Origin: a virus
Taxonomy: Duplodnaviria; Caudoviricetes
Length of the DNA stretch: 43,168 nt
Virus record (IMG/VR): IMGVR_UViG_3300050162_000122
Location: 1-43,168 of that record
Strand: one strand, 5' to 3'
Below the pieces are notes generated by a model. That model was given only the letters and a program-made list of their open reading frames with translations. It did not search any database and was not told where the DNA came from. Positions 500-43,168 of this stretch are shown one piece after another; the stretch's first letter is position 1; each line of letters starts with the position of its first letter. Both the position numbers and the translations under genes were made by a program.

Positions 500-1642
500 T
501 TAATCCTCCATATCAGTTGGGTGAATATCCTTTTCTGCCCATTCAGGCAATTTCATGTCAATGATTCCATGTGCGCCACTTTCGGCTCGTGCGTCAAATC
601 CAGGAAACCAGTTTGCATCAAAGCATTGTTTTACAATACTCATAGCTTCACGGTATTTGTATTTTCCGAGTTGAAGATCATCTGGAGCCCACCATAACAC
701 AGCCACATCATACGGTATTACCGTCTGAAGCATAATCATAATAGTCACGTTGAATTTGCGTTCAGTTATTTCGCTCATAACTTCTTGATACATGCCCTCA
801 GATAACTCATATTTGAGTTTTGCAGCATTGTACACGAAATGCCCAATATCATCGCAACGAGTTGTTTTGAAACTAATTACTACATTTACTCCGATATTTT
901 CTTCGATGTTGAAATAATCAGGGCGAACTTTAACCGGTAATCCTGTTGATTTGTCCACACCATAGAATGATGTCTCAGAAATTGCCCCTTTTAGTATTTT
1001 GGGGATAATTCCGCCACCATACCAATAATAATTTCGTTTGAGTGCCTGGATAATTTGATAATGCTCTTTTTGAATGAGCTGATATTTACATCGTTGGTAT
1101 TCGTACAGATACTTTTCTTTCAAATCCTGCATTTTCCAATCTGCTGAGATGTCTGTCGTAAATCCATCGTTTAGATTTTGTAAAAACTTTATCATGATTA
1201 TTACACCATCTTTTGATGCCATATTCACCTCTGGGGCTACTTTTACAGAGTCAAATAATTCAGGCTCTAAAAATGCCATATGAGCGAAAGTACCAAGCTC
1301 AAAACAAGGCTTATTCTCATGCTCGAAAGACTCTTCCCAATCATAAAAAAATGCTCTCGGAGTCTTCAATGCTTCTTTTAGTCCGCTAGAACTAATCCTC
1401 TTTTTTTCAAGATAAGTTTGCATATCATCTTTGACTACTTCGCCATTGACAGATAACTCATATAGGTCGATTTCGTACGGATCTTCGTTGTCGTGAAGTG
1501 ATATATATTCAAGCATCGTCTCTTTTGAAGGGTAATCACCTTCAGCGAAGCAAAGAGGGTTTAGCTCTTTGCCTACTGATAGGTTTTCAAGGTCAATCAA
1601 GCCGTCCATTAGATCTGGATAATTAGCGGTCTTATTGACCAA
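500..1642 (-). CDS. RecE/exonuclease VIII-like PD-(D/E)XK nuclease (true start probably 1609)
   Basis: ISSSGLK, GTFAHMAFLEP, ISETSFY and KVRPDY motifs typical of the ExoVIII/DUF3799 family. Confidence 0.85.
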   Translation of the reverse strand: MVNKTANYPDLMDGLIDLENLSVGKELNPLCFAEGDYPSKETMLEYISLHDNEDPYEIDLYELSVNGEVVKDDMQTYLEKKRISSSGLKEALKTPRAFFYDWEESFEHENKPCFELGTFAHMAFLEPELFDSVKVAPEVNMASKDGVIIMIKFLQNLNDGFTTDISADWKMQDLKEKYLYEYQRCKYQLIQKEHYQIIQALKRNYYWYGGGIIPKILKGAISETSFYGVDKSTGLPVKVRPDYFNIEENIGVNVVISFKTTRCDDIGHFVYNAAKLKYELSEGMYQEVMSEITERKFNVTIMIMLQTVIPYDVAVLWWAPDDLQLGKYKYREAMSIVKQCFDANWFPGFDARAESGAHGIIDMKLPEWAEKDIHPTDMED

Positions 1643-2055
1643 TTATCAGAGCTGAACGCATTCGATTTGTTGCGCTTCTTGCCATTGTAGGTGATCTGAA
1701 GGGGAGTTCCCTGCTTGATAGCTCCGGCGTTGATGTAATCTTCAAGCACACCCACTAATCTGCGAGATCCATTCGTAACAGTGGCGATAGTACCGTCAGT
1801 TTTTTGTTCAAGAAAAACAGCACAGTCAAGGTCGATTAACTCACCAGTGCCATTTGCTGATAGCACCTTTTGTGGTTTTACTTCGACAAAGAACATCCGT
1901 TTTGTTTCGCCCGGATTTTCGGGTGTCCAATAATTACCGGAAAGGTCGATTGGCAATTCATTTGCCTTACTTAGGTCGGGTAGATTTCCTTTTAAATCCA
2001 CGGCCAACACGTCTAAAATGTTAGAATCTTTTCTAACTAGTTCATCTGTTTTCAT
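1609..2055 (-). CDS. Putative ssDNA-binding/annealing partner of the exonuclease
   Basis: Sits directly upstream of the RecE-like gene; beta-rich, OB-like pattern. Function is inferred from position. Confidence 0.5.
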   Translation of the reverse strand: MKTDELVRKDSNILDVLAVDLKGNLPDLSKANELPIDLSGNYWTPENPGETKRMFFVEVKPQKVLSANGTGELIDLDCAVFLEQKTDGTIATVTNGSRRLVGVLEDYINAGAIKQGTPLQITYNGKKRNKSNAFSSDNWSIRPLIIQI

Positions 2056-3351: not shown

Positions 3352-3663
3352 TCATGCTATCAGATTTAATTTTTTGAAACATCTGAAATCTTGATTCTCT
3401 GTGTCGAAGTAAACTTGAACAGTGGAATTCTTAGAGCGATTGTCGCCCTTTAATTTGTCGTCTAAATTCTTGAGAGTGCCCCAGGCTTCGCGGGTAGTGC
3501 CATCTACTTTTTGATAGTAGAATTTTACAATGCCTTTTTGAAGTTTTTGAACTAATTTAAAATTAGCCCATGCTATAGATAAGCAGATCGAGAAGCTTTC
3601 GCCTGTTTGTTTTGCAAATTGCCAAGCAAGCTTCATAATTGAGGATAAATTAAATGTTTTCAT
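3352..3663 (-). CDS. DUF2693/WYL_2 SH3 (Sm-like) beta-barrel protein
   Basis: IMKLAWQF, VKFYYQKVDGTTREAWGTL and VYFDTENQDFRCFKKLNL signatures. Confidence 0.85.
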   Translation of the reverse strand: MKTFNLSSIMKLAWQFAKQTGESFSICLSIAWANFKLVQKLQKGIVKFYYQKVDGTTREAWGTLKNLDDKLKGDNRSKNSTVQVYFDTENQDFRCFKKLNLIA

Positions 3664-3723: not shown

Positions 3724-3754
3724 CAAATATACAGACTATAATCTGTAGAACAAA
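3724..3754 (-). promoter_or_regulatory. Early lytic promoter (Bacteroidota -33/-7)
   Basis: TTTG (3754-3751), 19-nt spacer, TATATTTG (3731-3724). Confidence 0.85.
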
Positions 3755-32601: not shown

Positions 32602-32666
32602 TTTATGCTGCAAATATACTCATTTTGAACAAAAAGTATTCATTTTGAGTATATTTGCAGCATAAA
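32602..32666. promoter_or_regulatory. 47-bp bidirectional promoter element, copy 2, inside a perfect 21-bp inverted repeat
   Basis: Arms at 32602-32622 and 32646-32666; TATATTTG on both strands. Confidence 0.8.
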
Positions 32667-32672
32667 AAAAGT

Positions 32673-33017
32673 TTAAATCTGTTCGCCTGTGATTACATCG
32701 AATTTTTTAATATCTCCCCAATCCATTAATTGCCCTTTCAATTTGCACGTATCACTATCTTCTGAAGATTCGTGATAAGGACATTCTAAATTGCAGGTTT
32801 TCGACTCAACTACATCTTCCAACTCAGTACACCAAGTCATTTCACCATCTGTACAAGGTATAGCCTCAAATAGTTCGATCTCTTTCAAGTCGTCAGCTTT
32901 AGCATTTTCGATATGATGACTGAGAGGATAACAGTGCTCTGAATCTTCACTTTCGAAATACAATTGTTCTTTAATTTGATCTTTGCTCATATTGTCCAAT
33001 TTTATAAAGCAATTCAT
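32673..33017 (-). CDS. Acidic Cys-rich hypothetical protein
   Basis: Last early gene. Confidence 0.65.
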   Translation of the reverse strand: MNCFIKLDNMSKDQIKEQLYFESEDSEHCYPLSHHIENAKADDLKEIELFEAIPCTDGEMTWCTELEDVVESKTCNLECPYHESSEDSDTCKLKGQLMDWGDIKKFDVITGEQI

Positions 33018-33304
33018 CCCTTAGTTGCTTTAGTTTTTTATTCTGTTCCTGAAGTCTTTGATTTAAAATCTTTATGTTTTTGTAAGACTCTTCCTTTTTT
33101 ACTTCAGATCTCACCTGTCGGTTCAATTCTTTATCTACATTCACCTGGTTCAACTCATACGCCAAATGTTCAATTTCTGACTTCAGTTTACCTATTTCAA
33201 CTATCCTTTTCGGATAGTTGCTTGTTTAGATGCTGAATAAGTTCGTCCTTGGTATATTTTCTATGAAGCTTTATGACAGCTCGCTCAATATAGTCTTCTT
33301 TCAT
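32971..33304 (-). pseudogene. Coiled-coil gene split by a +1 frameshift near 33200
   Basis: MKEDY...LSEKD stops at AGT TGA while the +1 frame continues VEIGKLKSEIEHLAYELN. Confidence 0.6.
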
Positions 33305-33429
33305 AGCTTTGTATTTGTAATTACAAGTATAAATAGGATTATTGCACCTATCACCGTATCTTTCAATAAGAGCTTTTTTTATTCTGGCTAGTTCCCTATT
33401 TTTGAATGCTTGCTTGTCTGACACTTGTT

Positions 33430-33744
33430 TCATTTTGAAATATCCCTTTGTTTTAGAAACTCCTGAAATATCTCCCCTGAACTCAAGACAATCATGATTC
33501 CTCGCTTTGTTACATCAGTCCATTCGTTTTGATTATTGAATGACGGCACAAATGGACATTCTGAGGTTGCCACCCATTCAGCAAATTCAATGGAGATGTC
33601 TTGGATTTCTTTTTCCTTCCATTCGGCACCAGCTTCAAATACCGGCACAACTAAATCCCTTTCTGATTGAGTGAGGGAATTATAAAATTCCCTGTCAGAG
33701 TACAAATAATCTTTTGCGGCTTCTTTGTTAGTTTGATTTTCCAT
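33430..33744 (-). CDS. Hypothetical phage protein
   Basis: FEAGAEW and IEFAEW motifs common in phage accessory ORFs. Confidence 0.7.
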   Translation of the reverse strand: MENQTNKEAAKDYLYSDREFYNSLTQSERDLVVPVFEAGAEWKEKEIQDISIEFAEWVATSECPFVPSFNNQNEWTDVTKRGIMIVLSSGEIFQEFLKQRDISK

Positions 33745-33747
33745 AAC

Positions 33748-34038
33748 TCAAAAATTCAATTCTGTTTGACCTTTAATCTTACGCCTTTTGGGCGTTTTTC
33801 TCTCTGTTTGCATATATTGACACTCAGCTTGCCGAACGGCTTCATACGACTTTACATTTACTTCATCAAGTCCGGCAGATTGCGCTTGTATGTCACGATC
33901 AATCGAGCAACGGAAAGCGGTGTAGTCGCCTGTCTTTTCGTTCAGGTGACTGGCATTAATGCACCGGACGCAGTTGCGATCCTGCCAGATCATCATTTCA
34001 GTTCCGTTACTGAACAGGGGTTCGGTGGTTGTTTTCAT
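33748..34038 (-). CDS. Cys-containing hypothetical protein
   Basis: FSNGTEMMIWQDRNCVRC. Confidence 0.7.
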   Translation of the reverse strand: MKTTTEPLFSNGTEMMIWQDRNCVRCINASHLNEKTGDYTAFRCSIDRDIQAQSAGLDEVNVKSYEAVRQAECQYMQTERKTPKRRKIKGQTELNF

Positions 34039-34306
34039 CTTTGATTTGCTTTATAACTTCCTCTAATTTTTCCTTCCTTCCCTTCCGTTCAGAATCAATC
34101 TGAATAAAAGCCACTCCGATAATGATCAGGATCCAGCCGATTGCAAAGTATGGTCGGCCAAATGTGATCTTAAACGGGTTAAACTCGATCGATACCTGAG
34201 CAAGAAATAACATGATCAGGATAAGTAATGCCAGTGTGATAAGTGTTGTTTTCATACAACTTTCTTTAGGAATTGTTTCTTTTGTTCTGGGGTCATCATC
34301 ATCCAT
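34007..34306 (-). CDS. Membrane protein with 2 TM helices (likely start MKTTLI)
   Basis: Two hydrophobic segments. Confidence 0.65.
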   Translation of the reverse strand: MDDDDPRTKETIPKESCMKTTLITLALLILIMLFLAQVSIEFNPFKITFGRPYFAIGWILIIIGVAFIQIDSERKGRKEKLEEVIKQIKDENNHRTPVQ

Positions 34307-34464
34307 GTTGGAGGCTGATTTGATACCTTAACCGAAACTTTATTTTGAGCTACTTCATTTTGTTTGGCTATCACAAGCAAAGCCTCGGCATTTCCGTTTT
34401 CATATGTAGCGTGCTTCTTTGGCTTTGGCGCTCCGTCGGCTTGACTTACATCCTTTTTTCTCAT
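34252..34464 (-). CDS. Hypothetical protein
   Basis: TAATG coupling to the methyltransferase gene. Confidence 0.55.
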   Translation of the reverse strand: MRKKDVSQADGAPKPKKHATYENGNAEALLVIAKQNEVAQNKVSVKVSNQPPTWMMMTPEQKKQFLKKVV

Positions 34465-36398
34465 TATACTGCTATTTTATTTTGTTTGTGCAATCCATTT
34501 ACAGTCGCCCGGCACAGTACTCTTGCCATAGTCACCTCCACGGCATTACCGATAAATTTCTTTTGATCCGCTTGAGTCCCGATAAGCTTATAATCCTTTG
34601 GGAATCCCATTATCATTTTCAATTCAGGGATTTTCAGCATTCTCATTTTTATATCAATAATTCCGTACATGCACATGAATTCTTTGATGAGAATCATTTG
34701 TTTTGAATCGGTTTCGAAGATTATAATCTGAACTTCTCCACTTTCAGCCTGAACCAAATAAGGTGGCATTTTGTCCATTCGTGCTATCAGAGTAAACGAT
34801 GGAGAATCAACCGATCCACCTGCATTCATATACTGCGGATTCATGAGGTAATGCCATTTTCGATTTGCTGTTATAACCTGCGAAGGCTCGTTTACTGAGC
34901 TTCCAATATTTCCGAAATTGGTATTCATTATCCACGGAGTAATCAGATTTGCCTTTGGAGTCGTAGTGACAGCTGGGCACGGTTTATTGATATCCGAGTG
35001 CTGTCCACCACCAGAATACTGATTCATGATAAATTGATTACAACTTACCAAATTGTATTTTGGATTGGCCGTTAAAGCTCCAAGTGGTTTTTCGGTTGAA
35101 GCAGGTTTCGATTGCCCAAATTGCTGGTCAATAAATTTTGGATTCACAATAGAAAGTCTATCCTTTGTTGTAACTGTAGGGCTTGGATTATCAACTGAAC
35201 TTACATTATCTCCATTGCCGTAGTATGCAGAAATGAATTTGCAATTTACGAGCGAATGATGGTCCTTTGTTGTTATCGATCCGACAGGACTATCGGTCGA
35301 TATATTCTTACTTTCCGGATGTCCTGAAAAGTATTTAGATACGAACACTTTTGCAAACCTGTTATTCGTAGTAAGTACTCCACAAGGTTCTTCTACAGAT
35401 AAATTTCTGTGGTCTGGATTTCCCGAATTATATCGAGATAAAAAATCAACACTACAAACTTGCAATCGACCCTGAGTACTGATAGTTGGGCATGGAGAAT
35501 CAACACCTGGAGCGTTATATCTTCCATTTTGCCCCATTGAATTGTACTTCAATAAAAACTTATCTTTACCACCTGCAACGAATTTTACCAATCCGGCATA
35601 AATACGCTCCAGTGTTTTATCTGAAAGCTGTTTTTTTCGGTCAAATATTGAAACTCCTTCATCTGTAAAGTCAAGTACATCTCTGACTGGTTTCCATTTC
35701 TTGAATTCATCAAACAACCCTACTGATCCACCCTTGCAATGAGTAGGTTCTGGCCATGAAATTGGAAGTTCTGGTTTTGCAAATTGTAAGAATAATCGTT
35801 TTCGTGATGTATAAGCTCCAAAATCAGCAGAATTCAATATCCTGAAGTCTGTATGATATCCAAGATCACAAACCGAACTTACAAATTTCATATAGTCTGT
35901 TCCGTTGTACTTCGAGATTGGCTTTCCGTTTTCATCCATTTCACCCCAGCTCATGAACTCTTCAACATTCTCAATGTGTATGTAGTCAGGATTTAATGCT
36001 TGGATGTAACCAACTCCATCAAAATACTTATTTTCGGATGAATCATAATGTCTGAATAGCGAATAAGCTAATGTTCTGCTATCGGCATCTCTTGACTGAC
36101 CTCCTTTTGCTTTACTGAAATTCGTACACTCTAGCGAAGCCCACAACACAAGCTTTGCATCCGGATGCTGAAGTTTCATAAATTCAACATGAGCTTTTAA
36201 TTTCGTTAGATCAAGTGTTCTTACATCTTCAACAAAATGTAAAGCTTCAGGATGATTTGCTGCATGACTGGCGATTGCATTTTTATCGTGATTGACGCAA
36301 GCGATAACCTTTGCAACTCCGCTTGTTTCGACCCCTGTTGAAGTACCTCCAGCGCCTGAAAACAAATCAACATATAAAAGCTTAATATCCTCTTTCAT
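34464..36398 (-). CDS. DNA cytosine-C5 methyltransferase with a repeat-expanded variable region
   Basis: DLFSGAGG (I), SLECTNFS (IV), IENVEEF (VI), TSRKRLF (VIII), IGNAV (X). Confidence 0.92.
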   Translation of the reverse strand: MKEDIKLLYVDLFSGAGGTSTGVETSGVAKVIACVNHDKNAIASHAANHPEALHFVEDVRTLDLTKLKAHVEFMKLQHPDAKLVLWASLECTNFSKAKGGQSRDADSRTLAYSLFRHYDSSENKYFDGVGYIQALNPDYIHIENVEEFMSWGEMDENGKPISKYNGTDYMKFVSSVCDLGYHTDFRILNSADFGAYTSRKRLFLQFAKPELPISWPEPTHCKGGSVGLFDEFKKWKPVRDVLDFTDEGVSIFDRKKQLSDKTLERIYAGLVKFVAGGKDKFLLKYNSMGQNGRYNAPGVDSPCPTISTQGRLQVCSVDFLSRYNSGNPDHRNLSVEEPCGVLTTNNRFAKVFVSKYFSGHPESKNISTDSPVGSITTKDHHSLVNCKFISAYYGNGDNVSSVDNPSPTVTTKDRLSIVNPKFIDQQFGQSKPASTEKPLGALTANPKYNLVSCNQFIMNQYSGGGQHSDINKPCPAVTTTPKANLITPWIMNTNFGNIGSSVNEPSQVITANRKWHYLMNPQYMNAGGSVDSPSFTLIARMDKMPPYLVQAESGEVQIIIFETDSKQMILIKEFMCMYGIIDIKMRMLKIPELKMIMGFPKDYKLIGTQADQKKFIGNAVEVTMARVLCRATVNGLHKQNKIAV

Positions 36399-36793
36399 AC
36401 AATATTCAATTTTGATGGCATTAATTTTATCTGATCGATTATGTTTTGCATTTCGCTATTATCATCACCCGCTCTATCAATTGCAGTCAAAATCAGCTCA
36501 AGCAACATATCCGAGTCTTCACCTAGCTGAATCTGGGTTTCGTCTTCTGATTCTCTAATGATCGCCTTGTAGTCAGACATTGCAAAAACCAAAGTCTTGT
36601 ATGGAGCAAAAAGTCTTTTCCACGTCTTTTTGCATTCGGAAAAATTGCTTGCAAGTTTAGAAACGTCTTTCTTGTCGATCAATCCCAATCTTTTCGAAAG
36701 ATCATTTTTTTGAGACCGGCACATTTCGGACATATCCATGAATATAAATTCAAGGTTGTTGTATAGTAGTAATTTTTGTTGTGTAAGTGTCAT
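36395..36793 (-). CDS. Hypothetical protein
   Basis: ATGA-coupled on both sides. Confidence 0.65.
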   Translation of the reverse strand: MTLTQQKLLLYNNLEFIFMDMSEMCRSQKNDLSKRLGLIDKKDVSKLASNFSECKKTWKRLFAPYKTLVFAMSDYKAIIRESEDETQIQLGEDSDMLLELILTAIDRAGDDNSEMQNIIDQIKLMPSKLNIV

Positions 36794-37362
36794 TTCATTT
36801 TTCTCCTTTCAAATTCTTTATACGCATTTTCCAAATTAGATACTGATTCATCTGCGTAGTTTCTGCTGGCGTTGTATGAGCTTTCTTCTGCTGCGTTTAG
36901 TCTGTCTGAGGTATATTTGTTTAACCACGACAAAATAACGCTAGAATCGAGCCTGAATATGCCCTTATCATACCTTCCTGCCTTTGCGTTATTGAAGCAT
37001 AATCTGAAATCTTCGATATTAAGCCAGTAGTATTGATCTATTATGTCGTTAATGAGTTCGGCAACCTGATCCTTATCCATTGTCTGCCCCAGGTTGAATG
37101 ATTGAGTTAAGTCTCCGATAATTACCGACATTATCGCCCTTACTGCTATTTCCCCATTCGTTCCGTATGTTTTTCGATAAGTGGCCAGCGACGGGGTTAT
37201 AGATAAAAAAACGTCATTGAATGTTTTCGGGCACAAGGTTTTGTAATACTGACGTGGCCATCTCTGTAAGATCGGATACACTTCTTCTTTTACTTTCGGC
37301 ATTAACTCCTGAGGTATTCTTCCAATTTGAGTTATCTGTTGTTCGTACTTCTGTATTTCCAT
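36790..37362 (-). CDS. Putative helicase loader / lambda P-position replication protein
   Basis: Follows the initiator; YYWLNIEDFRLCFNNAKAGRY motif. Confidence 0.55.
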   Translation of the reverse strand: MEIQKYEQQITQIGRIPQELMPKVKEEVYPILQRWPRQYYKTLCPKTFNDVFLSITPSLATYRKTYGTNGEIAVRAIMSVIIGDLTQSFNLGQTMDKDQVAELINDIIDQYYWLNIEDFRLCFNNAKAGRYDKGIFRLDSSVILSWLNKYTSDRLNAAEESSYNASRNYADESVSNLENAYKEFERRKMK

Positions 37363-38050
37363 TTGATTTTAGCCATTTTTGATATTGTTCATCAGTGTCA
37401 GGATAAGTTACTCCCTGCCATCCATTCTCAATTGCCTTATTCATTAGCATTATTGCGAATTCTTCTTTGTATTTTCCAAGTGAATTTAACGCAAGCTGCA
37501 AAGAGTGCTCTATTTTCTTTTTCCATTTTGGAGTTGAAATAAGAATTCCCCATGTTTGAAGAAATTCGTTTGAAAAAAAAGGATATGATAATTCATCGGT
37601 TTTTGCCTTTTTTGTCGACTTTCCTTTTTCCCCTGTACCCCTTTTTTCTTTCTTATTTATATCTTCAATTACAATTTCATTTTCAATTTCCATATGTTGA
37701 TCATATGTTTTCATATGTTTTTCATATGTTTTTTGATTTTGATTGCTTTCTTTATTGGGTTTTTTACGGTTGTTTCTACGTGACTCACTGTAATTCCGAC
37801 GCTTAACTATGCTATCGGCAACCCATTTAATCTGAAAACCTCCGTCCACTTCAGAAAGGGTGAACATTAATTCTGTTTTTTCATCATCACTGAGTCTCTT
37901 TGTAAAAAAATTTATTTGCTGCTGTGAAATACATATGTTTCTCATATGTTCACACATGATACGATCATATGCGACCTGAGAATTCTCACTTAAACACTGC
38001 GTATCTCGGAGGTAATCGCCCGGGTAGAAAATAAATCCAGGATCGTCCAT
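37214..38050 (-). CDS. Replication initiator (DUF1376/YdaU-like N-terminus)
   Basis: DPGFIFYPGDYL start; internal iterons; AIENGWQG C-terminal domain. Confidence 0.8.
   Translation of the reverse strand: MDDPGFIFYPGDYLRDTQCLSENSQVAYDRIMCEHMRNICISQQQINFFTKRLSDDEKTELMFTLSEVDGGFQIKWVADSIVKRRNYSESRRNNRKKPNKESNQNQKTYEKHMKTYDQHMEIENEIVIEDINKKEKRGTGEKGKSTKKAKTDELSYPFFSNEFLQTWGILISTPKWKKKIEHSLQLALNSLGKYKEEFAIMLMNKAIENGWQGVTYPDTDEQYQKWLKSNGNTEVRTTDNSNWKNTSGVNAESKRRSVSDLTEMATSVLQNLVPENIQ
37691..37730. repeat. Origin iterons (CATATGTT x4)
   Basis: 10-11 bp periodicity in the initiator linker; two more copies at 37932-37950. Confidence 0.8.
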
Positions 38051-38053
38051 AAT

Positions 38054-38386
38054 CTAAAACTTATAAGTTGATTCAAAAAATATGCCCTTTTCGAGCAAAA
38101 GGGCATGCTCAGCCTCCCGAACACACCCTTTCGATAACTTCCATCCTTCACACAAATAAACTCCGTCACAGTCCTCTAAATTGTTCAAATCCTCTCGCAT
38201 GTAATCATCATGCGTTGGGTCACATTTTCCAATAAGATTAAATGACTTTTTGAGCCTATCTCCCAGATCGAATGGGTTTATAACAGAAAAGCCCTTTTGT
38301 TCAAATTCATTTTGAATTTCAAGGGCTTTTAATCTCTGCTTTAGCTCGCATTTACCAGTAATTGGTATTGATATGTAGATTGTCAT
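38054..38386 (-). CDS. DUF4406 / nucleoside deoxyribosyltransferase-like protein
   Basis: IYISIPITG...VINP...CDGVYLCEGWKLSKGCVREAEHA. Confidence 0.85.
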   Translation of the reverse strand: MTIYISIPITGKCELKQRLKALEIQNEFEQKGFSVINPFDLGDRLKKSFNLIGKCDPTHDDYMREDLNNLEDCDGVYLCEGWKLSKGCVREAEHALLLEKGIFFESTYKF

Positions 38387-40914
38387 GCTATATCCTCCAA
38401 GTCAAATAAAGTAGGTGCATTCATGTCATTTTCTGCTTTTCTCAGATAGAATAAACTATCTCTGAAGCTTTCAGGATTCAACTCTGTTGACATTCCACGA
38501 CGCCCCATTAATAAGGCTCTGTATGGTGTAGTTCCTAATCCACCGAACGGGTCAAATACTAAATCACCTTTGTTTGAGAAGCGGTTAATCAATCTATCTA
38601 CAATATCGAATTGGAGAGGGCAAATGTGCATATTAAGCTTCTTATTGCTTTGTGCAGAGTTCAATGTGAGCATACGATTGACGTCATCCCAAATAAAGAA
38701 ACTTCTGGCCGGAATATCCAGCGTCTGAAATGTTGCAGGCAGTTTATTTGCAGCTTCCATTTCTTTGGCAATAGTTACGTGTTTTTCGTAATTATAGACC
38801 TCTTCTGACATGTATTCGCTAAAATACCTGTTTATCTTGTCGATTGGTAGCGCCTTAATTTCTTCGGTAGCTAGAAATCTGTTACCTGAACTATTCCACT
38901 TTGCACGGGCATCAATCTGCCATTGTCCACGTGGATAATCCTGTTTTGTCTTTACTACAGGTTCATCTGCATAAGCCTTTGAAGTATCTGTTGGAAGTTT
39001 GCGGAAAAGAAGCACATACTCAGGGCAACCAACGCCCATTTTTGAGCCGTCTTTTGTTTGTTCTGTCCAACCCAAACGATAAGTTTGATTATTCTCCCTT
39101 ACAACATCTGTTTCAACGGTTATTCTACCGAAATAGCGAAATCCATGTTTAAGAAAATGCATAACTGTAAGGTCGCTGAATGGGTCGAGAGTTGGCATCC
39201 CATCTCCGGTTGCATTACCAAACAAGATTCTGTCCTTAACGTGTATTGCAGCAACTCGACCAGGCTTTAAAATTCTTAGAAGTTCGGGAGTCAAGAAATC
39301 CATTTGTTCAAAGAAATGACCATTGTCATCAGTATGTCCGAAATCATTGTATGTAGGAGTGTATTCGTAATGATTTGAGAATGGTATTGAAGTTACAACC
39401 AAATCAACGCTGTTTTCTTTCATTGTTTGAGTTTCCAATACACAATCATTTTGATATACTGTCCAGCCGTTACCGGATTCTACACGACGTTCAATTCCCA
39501 GTGTTCTGAGTAGTTTTTGCTCTACGTTTGTAGAGGACAATCCGTTTTCTTTTATAATTTTTGTCATTTGCTTAACTAAGTGATTATGTTGTTTCCACTT
39601 CTTTTCGAGAACCTTCAGGATTTCGCTTTCAGATTCTGCATAAATGATATGAATTTCAGCTTTATGGGTTTGCTGAAATCTGTAAATGCGGTGTATTGCC
39701 TGAATAAATGAGTTAAATTCATATCCAATACCTAAGAATATAGCTTTATGACAGTGGTATTGAAAATTACAACCTTGTCCGCTAATTTCCGGCTTTGTGG
39801 CTATGTATTGAATTTTTCCCTGTGAGAAATCAATAATATTTTGTTCTCTTTTCTCCATGTCCTGAGATCCGTAAACCTCGCAAATATCATATTCTGAACG
39901 TGGCATTGACTGCATGATTGAATGTCGTTCATTTTCGAGATCGTGCCAAATGATATAATGGCTATCTCTGTCAGAATCTATAATCTCTTTCATTTTTAAA
40001 ATTCGATTATCGAGACTATCTCGCTTCTCCCTTGCTGCGTCTTTTAATCCAAGAGCTGCATCTCTGAACATTTTAGTCTGTCCGTCTTGCTCACTACCTG
40101 CCGAATCATGATCTACTTTAACCATGTGATAAATAATCTCCATTTCGGGCAAAGCATATCCTTCATCTGAGTATCCCAAGTCAGAAGGGTTTGTAATAAG
40201 CAAAGCCCACGTCGACATCCACAGCCAGAACTCCTGTTCTTTATGTGGGTGAATAGTCAGATTATTAGCTTGTGTAGAATCACGTTTGAAAAAGCGTGTC
40301 AAGGCTTGTCCGGTGTCCATTATTTCCAAATATCCGGCATAATGTATCAATTCTTTATACTTATTTGGGGAAGGTGTGGCGGTGCAAACATATTTGTATT
40401 TAACACCTTTGAATTTTTCAAGAAACGTCTGATATGTTTTAGAGCCATAAGATCGCAAAACAGAAGCTTCATCAAGGCTTGTTACAGCAAAGTATTTGGG
40501 GTCAATACCGCAGTCTCTTACACGCTCATAATTGGTTATACAAATTGAGCCTTCAGGTAGTTTTTCGGCATCTGACATTGTTTTGATATAATGAACTTCG
40601 ATACTAAGTTTGTTTTTGGCATCATTTGTAAATTCCTGTCTTACTCCCAAGGGGCAAACAATCAAAGATTTTCCACCTATATGTTCGGTAATGACTTGAC
40701 AAATCAACAACTGTTGAATAGTTTTTCCCAACCCAAAGCTTTCGAACAAAGCGCGTCTACCTCCTTGGATTGCCCAGTTAATGGCATCTCGTTGGTGTGG
40801 CTTTAAGACTGTGCCGTCCTTGAATTCGATTAACCCAATTTCTATATTAAGCCCTGATTGTGGAGCTATATATACTTTCTTTTTCAGGAACTCAATGTAC
40901 TTGTCACTTTTCAT
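38383..40914 (-). CDS. SNF2-like helicase fused to an N4/N6 DNA methyltransferase
   Basis: GLGKT, LDEAS, TATP and QAIHRIYR helicase motifs; VTSIPF and DPFGGLGT methyltransferase motifs. Confidence 0.9.
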   Translation of the reverse strand: MKSDKYIEFLKKKVYIAPQSGLNIEIGLIEFKDGTVLKPHQRDAINWAIQGGRRALFESFGLGKTIQQLLICQVITEHIGGKSLIVCPLGVRQEFTNDAKNKLSIEVHYIKTMSDAEKLPEGSICITNYERVRDCGIDPKYFAVTSLDEASVLRSYGSKTYQTFLEKFKGVKYKYVCTATPSPNKYKELIHYAGYLEIMDTGQALTRFFKRDSTQANNLTIHPHKEQEFWLWMSTWALLITNPSDLGYSDEGYALPEMEIIYHMVKVDHDSAGSEQDGQTKMFRDAALGLKDAAREKRDSLDNRILKMKEIIDSDRDSHYIIWHDLENERHSIMQSMPRSEYDICEVYGSQDMEKREQNIIDFSQGKIQYIATKPEISGQGCNFQYHCHKAIFLGIGYEFNSFIQAIHRIYRFQQTHKAEIHIIYAESESEILKVLEKKWKQHNHLVKQMTKIIKENGLSSTNVEQKLLRTLGIERRVESGNGWTVYQNDCVLETQTMKENSVDLVVTSIPFSNHYEYTPTYNDFGHTDDNGHFFEQMDFLTPELLRILKPGRVAAIHVKDRILFGNATGDGMPTLDPFSDLTVMHFLKHGFRYFGRITVETDVVRENNQTYRLGWTEQTKDGSKMGVGCPEYVLLFRKLPTDTSKAYADEPVVKTKQDYPRGQWQIDARAKWNSSGNRFLATEEIKALPIDKINRYFSEYMSEEVYNYEKHVTIAKEMEAANKLPATFQTLDIPARSFFIWDDVNRMLTLNSAQSNKKLNMHICPLQFDIVDRLINRFSNKGDLVFDPFGGLGTTPYRALLMGRRGMSTELNPESFRDSLFYLRKAENDMNAPTLFDLEDIA

Positions 40915-41068
40915 AATAATCCATGCATTTAATTGGCGAGTGCTGCCATATTTGTTTCACTTTACACCAGACTTTAAAGTCTTGTATTATACCTCCGTTT
41001 TTGCAGTTTCTACAGTAGCAAACATTGGGTATTATTCTTTCTTTTTGTTCTTGGTTTTTCTTTGCCAT
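40904..41068 (-). CDS. 54-aa Cys-rich (zinc-binding?) protein missed by the ORF track
   Basis: MAKKNQEQKERIIPNVCYCRNCKNGG...WCKVK...KCMDYYEK*; overlaps the helicase start. Confidence 0.7.
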   Translation of the reverse strand: MAKKNQEQKERIIPNVCYCRNCKNGGIIQDFKVWCKVKQIWQHSPIKCMDYYEK

Positions 41069-41072
41069 GTCT

Positions 41073-41106
41073 TTAAAGAAATACCCCGAGCTGAATTGCT
41101 CGGGGC
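41073..41106 (-). terminator. Terminator-like hairpin closing the RNA cluster
   Basis: CCCCGAGC-AATTCA-GCTCGGGG followed by TATTTCTTT. Confidence 0.7.
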
Positions 41107-41161
41107 ATGGTTCCCACTTGCAGACTGTTCCTGCCTGCCAATCCTCTTGTGGGTGATTGTG

Positions 41162-41262
41162 TGATGTAGATCGGATTTGAACCGATGACCTGTTGGTTGG
41201 GGGCGACTTACCTAATCTGCACCCTTAATTTCAATCGCTCTACCTGGCTGAGCTACTACACC
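41162..41262 (-). tRNA. tRNA-like RNA (101 nt) with a 34-nt structured anticodon loop; no assignable anticodon
   Basis: GGTGTAG/CTACATC acceptor stem, TA-GCTC-AGCCAGGTA-GAGC D-arm, AGGTC variable loop, ATCGG-TTCAAAT-CCGAT T-arm. Confidence 0.85.
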
Positions 41263-41263
41263 G

Positions 41264-41302
41264 TTACCTCGAAGCGAAAGTGCGACCAAACGCCCCGGGT
41301 AA
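41264..41302 (-). ncRNA. Hairpin displaying loop TTTGGTCGCACTTT, putative antisense RNA
   Basis: TTACC-CGGGGCG / CGCTTCG-A-GGTAA stem; its two G-U pairs form only on the minus strand. Confidence 0.65.
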
Positions 41303-41305
41303 TAT

Positions 41306-41665
41306 TTAAAAAGGAAGATCGTCAACCTGTGGCGAAAAATTACTTGTAGCACTTGGCTGCATTTCTGCTTTTTTAATCGGTTTTACACCTCCGATAATAG
41401 GGATAGCGTTTTTTTGCTCGTCGGTTAATGTTTCATATATTTCCTTTGGAATGCTTTGTTTGATGAAGTGAGAATCATCATACTTTTGCTCTTTGAATTC
41501 AAGAGCTGTTGCATCAAGATAAACTCCTTTTTCACCGACGAATAGTCCAGCATCTTCTACTGGTATTACTATGCAAGGTTTTTGTTCGCCAGACCTTCCG
41601 GTTAGTTTAGTGAAGATGGCGCCAGGTATTCTGGTTAAATTGATTTTTATTGCTAAGTTGCTCAT
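41306..41665 (-). CDS. SSB-like protein
   Basis: Beta-rich core with acidic DDLPF tail. Confidence 0.7.
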   Translation of the reverse strand: MSNLAIKINLTRIPGAIFTKLTGRSGEQKPCIVIPVEDAGLFVGEKGVYLDATALEFKEQKYDDSHFIKQSIPKEIYETLTDEQKNAIPIIGGVKPIKKAEMQPSATSNFSPQVDDLPF

Positions 41666-41925
41666 TTTTTATGTGCTTTTTGATGGCAATGCTCGCACAA
41701 TAGGACTAAGCAGTCCAAATTATCAAGCTCTTTGCCAACGATTGATACTCCATTTTTCTTATATGTGATGTGGTGAACTTCAAGATTATAATCCTGATCG
41801 CAATCACGGCATTTATGTTTATCCCGAATCCTTATTTGTCGTTTCACTTCGTTCCAGTATGGATTTTGTTTAAGGCTCGACCGATATTTAGTCGGTCGGC
41901 CTTTTTTATGCTGAAGCCGTGACAT
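41662..41925 (-). CDS. HNH endonuclease
   Basis: RDKHKCRDC...LEVHH...LCEHCHQKAH. Confidence 0.9.
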   Translation of the reverse strand: MSRLQHKKGRPTKYRSSLKQNPYWNEVKRQIRIRDKHKCRDCDQDYNLEVHHITYKKNGVSIVGKELDNLDCLVLLCEHCHQKAHKK

Positions 41926-42536
41926 TATTCTTCGGGTTCAAGTTCCTGCACTTCTTCCGGTATTTGTTCTGCTGGCTTGATTGCGCTTGCCTCAATTCCG
42001 TAATTTTCTTTGAAAAATTTGGCATTTTTAGTCGATGAATTGAACACGTCGTTTCGCTCCCAACTTGGTATTTGTCGAACGCACGCAAGCTTAAACTTAT
42101 CATTCACCCACGAATAATACAGGTAGTTTTCACCTACAGGGATTCTAAATGTTTCTCCAAATTTTAGGTTCATCTTCTTTGTGCCGATTCGAACCTGTGA
42201 TACAAGATCGTCGATTTCTGTTGATACGGCTGAGTACTTGGCCTTAGCCTCTTTTATTTTTGCTTTACTTTCGGCAATAATAGCTTCAAGTTCGGAGCTT
42301 AAACGTGGCTTTTTGCTTTCAAGCAAAATTTGATACTCGTCTCGAATCCATTCTTTTTCGTTGTCATCGAGTAGTCTTATGGCAACAGTATCTTTCTCCT
42401 GTATTGCGATAAGTTTTTCAGCTATAGCCTGCCTTACATCTTCTACAGACATAAGGTCTTCGAAAATAGCTGGCGGAAATCCTAATTGTTCAGGAACATC
42501 AAACTTGACGTCCTGAGGTAAATAATCTTCTTTCAT
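41925..42536 (-). CDS. Hypothetical early protein
   Basis: 203-aa ORF coupled to the HNH gene. Confidence 0.7.
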   Translation of the reverse strand: MKEDYLPQDVKFDVPEQLGFPPAIFEDLMSVEDVRQAIAEKLIAIQEKDTVAIRLLDDNEKEWIRDEYQILLESKKPRLSSELEAIIAESKAKIKEAKAKYSAVSTEIDDLVSQVRIGTKKMNLKFGETFRIPVGENYLYYSWVNDKFKLACVRQIPSWERNDVFNSSTKNAKFFKENYGIEASAIKPAEQIPEEVQELEPEE

Positions 42537-42547
42537 ATTTATTCATT

Positions 42548-43168
42548 TTATGTAAAAAATTCCTTAAACGCATTGTGTCCGTATTCCCCTTTGGTTACTT
42601 CGATTATCTCTGATACTGTATATTTTTCAAGTCGTTCTACTAATCTATTAGATACGAAATCCTTAGTTCCAAAAGTACACGCCCCGGTTATTACTCGGTA
42701 GCATTCTATCGATTCTTCAAAAGTCAATTCGCTGTCCATTTTCAGATTTTTATAATCTGACTTATCTCGATTGGAAATCTTGAAAATCAAATCCTCTTTT
42801 GCCTCTTTAATAGTATGGCCGTGGGAGTATTTGCCATTTCCATCAGTGACAAGATATGATTCTTTGAGTTGTCCTATTTCCTGAATTTTGAACACATTTT
42901 GTTTGCAAGAAATAACCTTGGAAAAAATACCGTCAACTTTGATATATTTGTTATTTCTCCACGAGAAGAATGATTTTTCATTAATATTTCGATTAACCAT
43001 GCTTGTGTCGGTGATCTGCGTACCTTCTAGGTAGAGATGACCTCCCACCGTCAGCCCCTCGGGCAATGCTGTGATCTGGGTATTCTCAAGGTAGAGATGA
43101 CCTCCCACCGTCAGCCCCTCGGGCAATCCTGTGATCTGGGTATTCTCAAGGACTATATAACATCCCAC
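42548..43168 (-). CDS. C-terminal part of LRR-like repeat protein
   Basis: Repeats followed by HGHTIKEAKEDL...YRVITGACTFGTKDF domain; open at the window end. Confidence 0.9.
   Translation of the reverse strand: MGCYIVLENTQITGLPEGLTVGGHLYLENTQITALPEGLTVGGHLYLEGTQITDTSMVNRNINEKSFFSWRNNKYIKVDGIFSKVISCKQNVFKIQEIGQLKESYLVTDGNGKYSHGHTIKEAKEDLIFKISNRDKSDYKNLKMDSELTFEESIECYRVITGACTFGTKDFVSNRLVERLEKYTVSEIIEVTKGEYGHNAFKEFFT
43011..43168. repeat. 60-bp tandem repeat, same unit as at 1-162
   Basis: About 2.6 copies. Confidence 0.95.

Follow-up and report, generated by a model that had tools for sequence, protein, structure and literature searches.

The tRNA fold serves for cutting by RNase P/Z, or for the display of a foreign RNA in the anticodon arm, in mascRNA/menRNA, in engineered tRNA scaffolds and in tRNA-gRNA arrays. 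All of these are eukaryotic or synthetic; the element described here would be their natural counterpart in a bacteriophage, with cargo that can be exchanged. Among phage RNAs, RNAC (rnaC, species 1 RNA) and RNAD of T4 are small stable RNAs of the phage tRNA cluster, the function of which is unknown (NC_000866; accessible text of PMC9697503). RNAC ends in a T-arm and carries non-tRNA hairpins in its middle, and its predicted fold lacks a canonical D-arm. The locus considered here resembles both in encoding what would be a small stable phage RNA; however, unlike RNAC, it keeps the acceptor stem, D-arm, variable loop and T-arm, and unlike either T4 RNA it stands alone in a 43-kb temperate phage, fused to a pseudoknot. 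By analogy, the mimic may work as an RNAC-type stable RNA or as a natural tRNA scaffold rather than as a decoding tRNA.

Oversized pseudo-tRNAs with conserved inserts in the anticodon region also occur in the Lak phages of Bacteroidales, for which, according to the accessible text of Devoto et al. (10.1101/356790), excision is predicted to leave an anticodon and alleles without the intron are found. The present element shares their size, their kind of phage and the anticodon-region insert; in contrast, no excision restores an anticodon loop in it, and its relatives carry other non-canonical bodies. A third counterpart is the theta (minimal HDV-like) ribozymes of Kienbeck et al., which, in the accessible part of PMC10879173, are compact pseudoknots in phages of Bacteroidota, located 3' of CCA-less tRNA genes and reused behind different tRNA bodies, as is the pseudoknot described below.

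The window, i.e., the whole stretch analysed, is a virus record of 43,168 nucleotides (IMGVR_UViG_3300050162_000122) with an integrase-like gene, a repressor, and replication, terminase, portal and tail genes. The phage is temperate and of Bacteroidales type, and relatives are found in Bacteroidota contigs. Both ends of the record (1-190 and 42990-43168) consist of a 60-bp tandem repeat in a gene for a leucine-rich-type repeat protein and, when joined, read as one ORF in frame; the genome is therefore probably a near-complete circle that was opened inside this repeat. Matches to the Bacteroidota-type promoter consensus number 11 in the window against 2.9 expected. None lies on the minus strand of 32657-43168, and the nearest upstream match on the strand of the element is at 3724-3754, across the joined ends, so that, judged by its position, the element is likely part of an early transcript. 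The first gene after this repressor-divergent promoter match encodes a WYL_2 protein (PF10902, Sm-like; 3352-3663, minus strand).

All neighbouring genes named here are on the minus strand. Upstream of the element lie a 119-aa ORF (41306..41665; phrog_36980) with an acidic, SSB-like DDLPF tail, and an HNH endonuclease ORF (41662..41925; PF01844), which serves as a synteny marker with the related loci L122 and L229 and is 67% identical to the L229 protein. Downstream follow a 54-aa Cys-rich ORF (40904..41068), with orthologs in L122 and in a further related locus, L121, and an SNF2 helicase-methylase fusion (N6/N4 methylase; 38383-40914). A second large DNA methyltransferase is encoded at 34464-36398, also downstream of the cassette.

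The first-pass annotation of the window had described positions 41162..41262 as a tRNA mimic with canonical acceptor stem, D-arm, variable loop and T-arm but no anticodon, leaving the strand unstated. The mimic is real, and the strand is minus: the element runs from 41262 to 41162 (101 nt). A cmscan search of Rfam matches it to the tRNA family RF00005 with 47.3 bits (E 3.8e-7); the match runs end to end over model positions 1-71 and is interrupted in the anticodon arm by an insert of 36 nt. Read from the sequence, the body comprises a 7-bp acceptor stem, U8/A9, a 4-bp D-stem, a 5-nt variable loop and a 5-bp T-stem with TTCAAAT; acceptor stem, D-arm, T-arm and elbow nucleotides are all canonical for a tRNA. 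The features of a decoding tRNA, namely a 5-bp anticodon stem, a 7-nt loop, U33 and purine 37, are absent. In the anticodon domain (41192..41235, minus strand; 44 nt), the stem ATTGA/CCAAC forms three Watson-Crick pairs between two A·C mismatches and closes a loop of 34 nt (41197-41230), and the discriminator A is followed by CAC, not by an encoded CCA. The annotation had read the mismatched stem, the loop length and the missing CCA correctly. Its 27-nt insertion is merely 34 minus 7 and lacks defined boundaries, and its loop sequence is off in one detail, as the C-run consists of five C's.

The whole 101-nt RNA is predicted to be unusually stable (fold z = -3.2; 0 of 200 shuffles as stable), while the anticodon domain alone has no significant fold (z = -1.16; 24 of 200 shuffles equal or better). 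In one Paludibacter genome, for which 46 tRNAs are listed and 40 were compared, the closest bodies are Arg(TCT) with 42/57 and Lys/Ala with 39/57 identical positions, and no parent isotype stands out. Upstream of the element, a 10-nt leader, GGTCGCACTT (41278..41287, minus strand), is identical in the window, L121 and L122 despite flanks that do not align; it loosely resembles a boxA.

The homolog of the element in L122 is identical to it at 90 of 101 bases, with 29 of 34 in the loop and 61 of 67 in the body. Four-fold sites in four flanking genes are identical between the window and L122 at 97 of 227 positions, which gives the loop an excess of conservation with p = 4e-6; loop and body do not differ from each other (p = 0.5). 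Since the loop is kept to this extent relative to the four-fold sites, the comparison supports selection on the 101-nt element and speaks against one-off decay. The six body substitutions fall at variable D-loop positions, at position 26, in an A-U to G·U pair and at the discriminator (A in the window, U in L122); they appear structure-neutral, which favours selection over recent transfer, while a recent transfer of the cassette could have contributed to the identity. L122, L151 and L401 are one and the same sequence, and the tRNA-like family hence counts two independent copies. A metagenome scan by loop motif returned one match, with the same sequence as L122, and among 24 loci with the upstream gene L122 alone carries a homolog. 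In GenBank phages, short tRNA-like matches were the most that was found, and 0 of 401 Bacteroidales genomes matched the element in a search run without a positive control.

The annotation's central idea, selection for shape rather than decoding, is thus strengthened by the kept loop, by the structure-neutral body changes and by the lack of a recoverable anticodon. The inner hairpin that it had drawn in the loop (GGGTGC…GCCCC) is rejected, as 2 of its 9 pairs are broken in L122. A candidate 4-bp GGYG/CGYC helix is compatible with both copies, with two one-sided changes; two sequences are too few to establish a fold.

The annotation had also offered a tiny intron. In this reading a short intron, in the manner of the Lak 'enigmatic introns', interrupts a tRNA gene, the transcript of which is spliced to a functional tRNA. 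Conserved tRNA introns are reported for Lak phages in the accessible text of 10.1101/356790, and the outcome of ARAGORN, another check that the annotation had named, depends on its mode: the standard run yields 0 tRNA genes, whereas with relaxed intron settings the element is called as tRNA-Gly(GCC), the intron being 25 nt long. However, the same relaxed mode calls the L122 homolog Arg(TCG) with a 21-nt intron, so that the anticodons disagree between the homologs, and 0 of 8 possible 27-nt excisions yield U33. The anticodon stem has only 3 pairs, the discriminator varies, and the annotated ORFs, many of which have no assigned family, include no RNA ligase or splicing nuclease. No intron-less allele was seen in the small sample of L121, L122 and L229. 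No anticodon is recoverable from the element; because no excision restores U33, an intron-bearing tRNA is very improbable, and the failed excisions together with the A-versus-U discriminator argue against any decoding role.

Comparison of orthologous loci revealed that tRNA-shaped modules are swapped between them. L121 has the same neighbour genes and the same leader, but its body is a 114-nt Leu-type tRNA body, the middle of which is unrelated. In L229, a Bacteroides contig whose locus is orthologous (upstream proteins 42% and 67% identical), an unrelated 64-nt body without an anticodon arm is followed by the same pseudoknot and a homologous terminator-like hairpin; the junction of body and pseudoknot is retained despite the exchanged body. 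Upstream of this 64-nt body, at about 1258-1330, L229 carries one more degenerate tRNA-like module, the T-loop of which is altered. In the Draconibacterium loci L227, L231 and L232, near-identical flanks surround homologous bodies whose anticodon domains are unrelated to one another; one slot is near-canonical in L227 and long-looped in L231 and L232. As these tRNA-shaped modules are replaced by unrelated ones at orthologous loci, the anticodon domain, to judge from the sequences, behaves as an exchangeable cargo slot. Of the functions proposed by the annotation, 'processing tag' and 'scaffold' gain support from the swapped modules and from the pseudoknot in fixed register downstream. In the near-identical prophage-like loci L227/L204, L231 and L232, a stretch of about 1.2 kb is free of genes and holds several tRNA-bodied RNAs, between which loci the anticodon domains and spacers are swapped; the cargo-slot idea could naturally be tested on them.

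A generic pattern for long-loop tRNAs matched at least 120 stretches of viral contigs, and among the matches listed 96 of 116 distinct ones have a single tRNA body, a paired acceptor stem and a long middle; 23 of these 96 resemble Tyr introns, and some may be tRNAs with a long variable arm. Oversized phage tRNA-like genes are, by this count, a recurring kind. A separate long-loop family (L006, L014, L020, L042, L046, L093, L094 and L115) has an anticodon domain composed of a hairpin followed by an ACAGCAA/ACTGCAA-like motif, which is also repeated in the flanks; G002:C31:14876-14996 (L469) may be a related copy.

That the mimic is a mere shape decoy for tRNA-targeting defences, such as anticodon nucleases or elbow binders, with an arbitrary loop and an unrelated pseudoknot as neighbour, would agree with its canonical elbow positions as read from the sequence, with the very different loops carried by similar bodies and with the abundance of long-loop tRNA-like genes in viral contigs noted above. 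We nevertheless consider it improbable. The loop is conserved as much as the body; the anticodon loop, which anticodon nucleases recognise, is absent here; and the junction with the pseudoknot survives the exchange of the body.

The annotation overlooked this pseudoknot, which is the better-supported new element of the locus. The motif occupies 41113..41160 on the minus strand (48 nt), and its consensus is A-YAAUC-A-NCCAC-AAGAG-GAUYG-[hairpin]-AA-GUGGN. Helix P1 pairs 41159-41155 with 41143-41139, and P2 pairs 41152-41149 with 41117-41114, with a variable fifth pair 41153/41113; the AAGAG loop (41148-41144), the P4 hairpin (41138-41120) and an AA (41119-41118) complete the structure. A CA spacer of 2 nt (41160..41161, minus strand) separates it from the discriminator, and the A of this spacer is motif position -1, so that P1 begins at N73+3. 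Behind the motif comes a terminator-like hairpin (41071..41108, minus strand), which is rich in GC, has a weak U tract and has homologous counterparts in L122 and L229; the next ATG past it is at 41068.

Exact-pattern scans of viral and genome contigs yielded 36 candidates, of which 34 were kept; these distinct copies represent 27 flank-independent phage or prophage contexts. Left out of the counts were L293 and L304, which passed the pairing filter and were judged chance by eye, L149 and other coding matches without the hairpin, L408 and L414 as weak model matches without the motif helices, and L418 (12.3 bits). Covariance model R1 scores the window copy, which was in its training set, at 69.2 bits, and the next match in the window at 11.8. 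P4 has a length of 18-20 nt in 31 of the 34 copies, and alignment A2 comprises these 31 members, with the long-P4 copies of L145, L148 and L174 excluded. In it, 95.6% of cells are paired, among members that had been pre-filtered for pairing, and two-sided changes occur in all 6 P4 pairs and in 3 of 5 P2 pairs. P1 has no two-sided change in its 5 pairs and is supported by complementarity and a U·G/C-G exchange only. The structure is therefore shown by covariation in two helices, P2 and P4.

A scan that imposed no pairing filter on P2 gave 77 distinct matches, 24 of them with an 18-20-nt hairpin; AA comes next in 24 of these 24, and P2 is fully paired in 23, in the versions CCAC/GUGG, CCUC/GAGG and CAUC/GAUG. 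Freeing most of P1 produced no structured member with a different P1, and freeing the AAGAG loop produced none with another loop; the sequences of P1 and loop were fixed in most search patterns, and their invariance is thus partly by design. With Rfam 15, the window region gave, at E up to 10, chance matches to lncRNA and miRNA families besides tRNA, and the motif had no match at gathering score in 20 loci or at E up to 0.01 in 9 loci. Its sequence strings had no literature match; the unnamed candidates of Fremin et al. 2023 (PMC10690425) and Weinberg et al. 2017 (PMC5737381) may include it. Literature searched by topic held no description of the motif, nor did the accessible parts of the Minerva preprint and of the supplement of PMC10085705. 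The pseudoknot is apparently an undescribed RNA motif family.

For comparison, phage pseudo-ToxI RNAs are grouped here with the type III antitoxin RNAs. ToxI, CptI and TenpI, as described in the accessible parts of PMC12283969 and PMC13682666, resemble the motif as small pseudoknots with A-rich flanks before an intrinsic terminator. Unlike these antitoxins, which are repeated, the motif is single copy, has an extra inserted hairpin and has no annotated neighbouring toxin gene. No toxin family was found among 51 flanking proteins scanned (of 88 listed), and ToxN (PF13958) gave 0 matches in 401 genomes, with control genomes likewise giving none. The type III antitoxin reading is weakened, if not rejected, by the absence of tandem repeats and of toxin families in the scanned neighbours.

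Nine of the 34 copies (7 of 27 independent contexts) begin at N73+3 behind a tRNA body, and the register is identical in all nine. These copies lie within the 5 nt of a tRNA 3' end that define adjacency for theta ribozymes. Eight of the bodies are parsable, and only that of L177 is a canonical tRNA. In the other 25 copies no tRNA lies directly upstream; a tRNA body is thus not required for the pseudoknot. Since N73 is followed by CA in 19 of 40 host tRNA genes, more often than by any other trailer, CA alone is generic, and the fixed register may reflect tight packing. Two matches to permuted tmRNA (RF04321) lie beside the motif, at 1627-1909 (minus strand) of L177, which is viral, and at 1620-1853 of L234, a Bacteroidales contig.

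These features bear on the possibility that the pseudoknot represents a novel type of small self-cleaving ribozyme, functionally analogous to theta, that trims the 3' ends of tRNAs and mimics. Its strand order P1-P2-P1'-P4-P2' matches that of HDV, here without the HDV core. The fixed register behind nine tRNA bodies, the A at -1 in 33 of 34 copies and a host phylum shared with most theta ribozymes agree with such a role, and the 48-nt size, the pseudoknot and the near-invariant unpaired bases fit the candidate criteria in the accessible text of Eckert et al. (PMC10085705). Unlike theta, however, the motif is a single pseudoknot plus P4, without P3, L3 or P1.1, in the place of which stands the 5-nt AAGAG loop; it has no catalytic C, J4/2 being AA in all 24 hairpin-bearing matches, and the preceding base is paired and covarying. 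It also stands mostly before terminators rather than behind tRNAs. From its N73+3 start, a cut 5' of P1 would yield N73-C-A and not N73. In 6 of the 34 copies, moreover, an ORF of 55-114 aa uses the UAA of P1 as its stop codon (the ORF of L230 has a homolog 72% identical), so that the same cut would create a non-stop mRNA. Ten similar candidates showed no cleavage according to the accessible part of Eckert et al. (PMC10085705). Taken together, we regard a ribozyme as unlikely.

A terminator-like hairpin starts within 6 nt after the motif in 18 of 34 copies (13 of 27 independent contexts), compared with 9 of 600 random positions, and several other copies precede another tRNA body at a distance of 4-5 nt. 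A second hairpin of the form ~GRYAGC-NNN-GGAAAGAC-NNN-GCA, a group that overlaps the terminator-like category, follows the pseudoknot in 11 of 34 copies (L146, L148, L182, L186, L207, L233, L243, L267, L271, L302 and L309); it is also found before tRNA genes in L183, L212 and L234 and has no Rfam match in the scanned loci.

The position before terminators or tRNA bodies could mean a cis-acting role for the pseudoknot at the 3' ends of RNAs, whether in put-like antitermination or pausing or as a block to exonucleases, with the mimic as a co-travelling stabiliser. Consistent with this, the hairpin of the window divides the upstream genes from the helicase and replication genes, in the very minus-strand stretch that has no promoter match. 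On the other hand, the motif and the terminator stem do not overlap, and L121 has the same gene order without motif or hairpin. At L238/L285 and at L230/L235, the closest downstream ORF that is shared lies on the other strand, so that read-through would be pointless. A cis-acting role is thus rather unlikely.

The genes neighbouring the motif vary and include terminases, HNH, primase and tail genes, and no ORF family is common to more than 3 loci within flanks of 300-2600 nt. WYL_2 was rejected as a partner (0 of 27 motif-bearing records; 1 of 20 controls), as were motif matches in Bacteroides uniformis phages, which lie inside CDS and are due to chance. Each of 5 searched phage records has one copy of the motif, and 20 phage records with the same upstream genes, including that of L121, gave no convincing one (best 12.3 bits). 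The nine genome matches are in Draconibacterium, Paludibacter, Bacteroides, unclassified Bacteroidales and Cyclobacteriaceae records; among other Bacteroidales genomes, 0 of 150 sampled carried the motif, with 39 candidates scored per genome. In the data searched, the family is confined to phages and prophages.

The cassette also invites comparison with the RNA anti-CRISPRs, i.e., Racr/SRU (accessible text of PMC10651486) and the phage crlRNAs (accessible text of 10.1101/2024.10.29.618823), which are small intergenic phage RNAs that act as decoys. In such a reading, the anticodon domain would mimic a crRNA, and TAATC…ATTG of the pseudoknot would mimic the core of a host repeat. In the family of the Paludibacter genome, CRISPR repeats have ATTGAAAT as their last bases and a commonest spacer of 36 nt, and the same tag-like ATTGAAAT opens the anticodon domain in both homologs, after the stem and one purine, leaving 36 nt. 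Unlike the known RNA anti-CRISPRs, the cassette has no full repeat, and no target was found: the loop had no target in 301 genomes at up to 3 mismatches, in this phage or in GenBank phages, and the phage's own genome holds 0 15-mers at up to 2 mismatches as an antisense target. The likeness is also common by chance, as genome windows score equally in 3.8% of cases for the tag, 8% for the pseudoknot and 29% for the leader, whose likeness to host CRISPR repeats in their 5' half stays within background; the 8-mer ATTGAAAT is present 9 times in the Paludibacter genome. Identity to 6 repeat types of one host family is 48-57%, below the 90% of the solitary-repeat rule in the accessible text of PMC10651486, and the lead arose post hoc. 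The Racr reading is weakened, if not rejected, by this repeat identity and background-level likeness, and an RNA anti-CRISPR is quite improbable.

We favour, at slightly less than even confidence, a mechanism in which the anticodon-less tRNA mimic heads a cassette from which the host cuts out two RNAs, probably accessory decoys that bind protein. The cassette would have three non-coding parts, the tRNA mimic, the pseudoknot and the terminator-like hairpin, and would be transcribed within the early operon. The tRNA parts that are kept across the swaps are the ones recognised by RNase P, by the nucleases that act on 3' ends and by the CCA enzyme, which suggests that the host cuts the mimic from the early transcript. 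The intact acceptor and T-arm would recruit host RNase P and 3'-end nucleases, and the cutting would free a stable 101-nt RNA that displays the exchangeable loop and is presumably not aminoacylated, together with a pseudoknot-plus-hairpin RNA of about 85 nt. A near-invariant sequence across distant hosts, a free location and a patchy single-copy distribution point to a trans-acting, protein-binding RNA, and both RNAs may act in trans as decoys for a conserved host protein, in an accessory role. We infer transcription, host processing, non-aminoacylation and the trans decoy role from these features.

More broadly, and more tentatively, Bacteroidota phages may possess modular RNA effectors composed of a host-processed tRNA chassis, a cargo slot and a pseudoknot that is either a ribozyme or an aptamer-like decoy, a generalisation that we find plausible and still doubtful. 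If it is true, the decoy would neutralise a conserved host defence or RNA-decay protein.

Phage 'pseudo-tRNAs' are common in annotations and are usually taken as decay or as unexplained introns. The present locus exhibits a pseudo-tRNA under selection, from which no anticodon can be recovered and which related phages swap as a module; this suggests that tRNA bodies are used as carriers. The locus has in addition led to a pseudoknot family that is compact and covaries well. If its function is borne out, this would be a new class of ribozyme or a new form of RNA counter-defence; a positive outcome would also bear on the long-open role of T4 RNAC-type RNAs.
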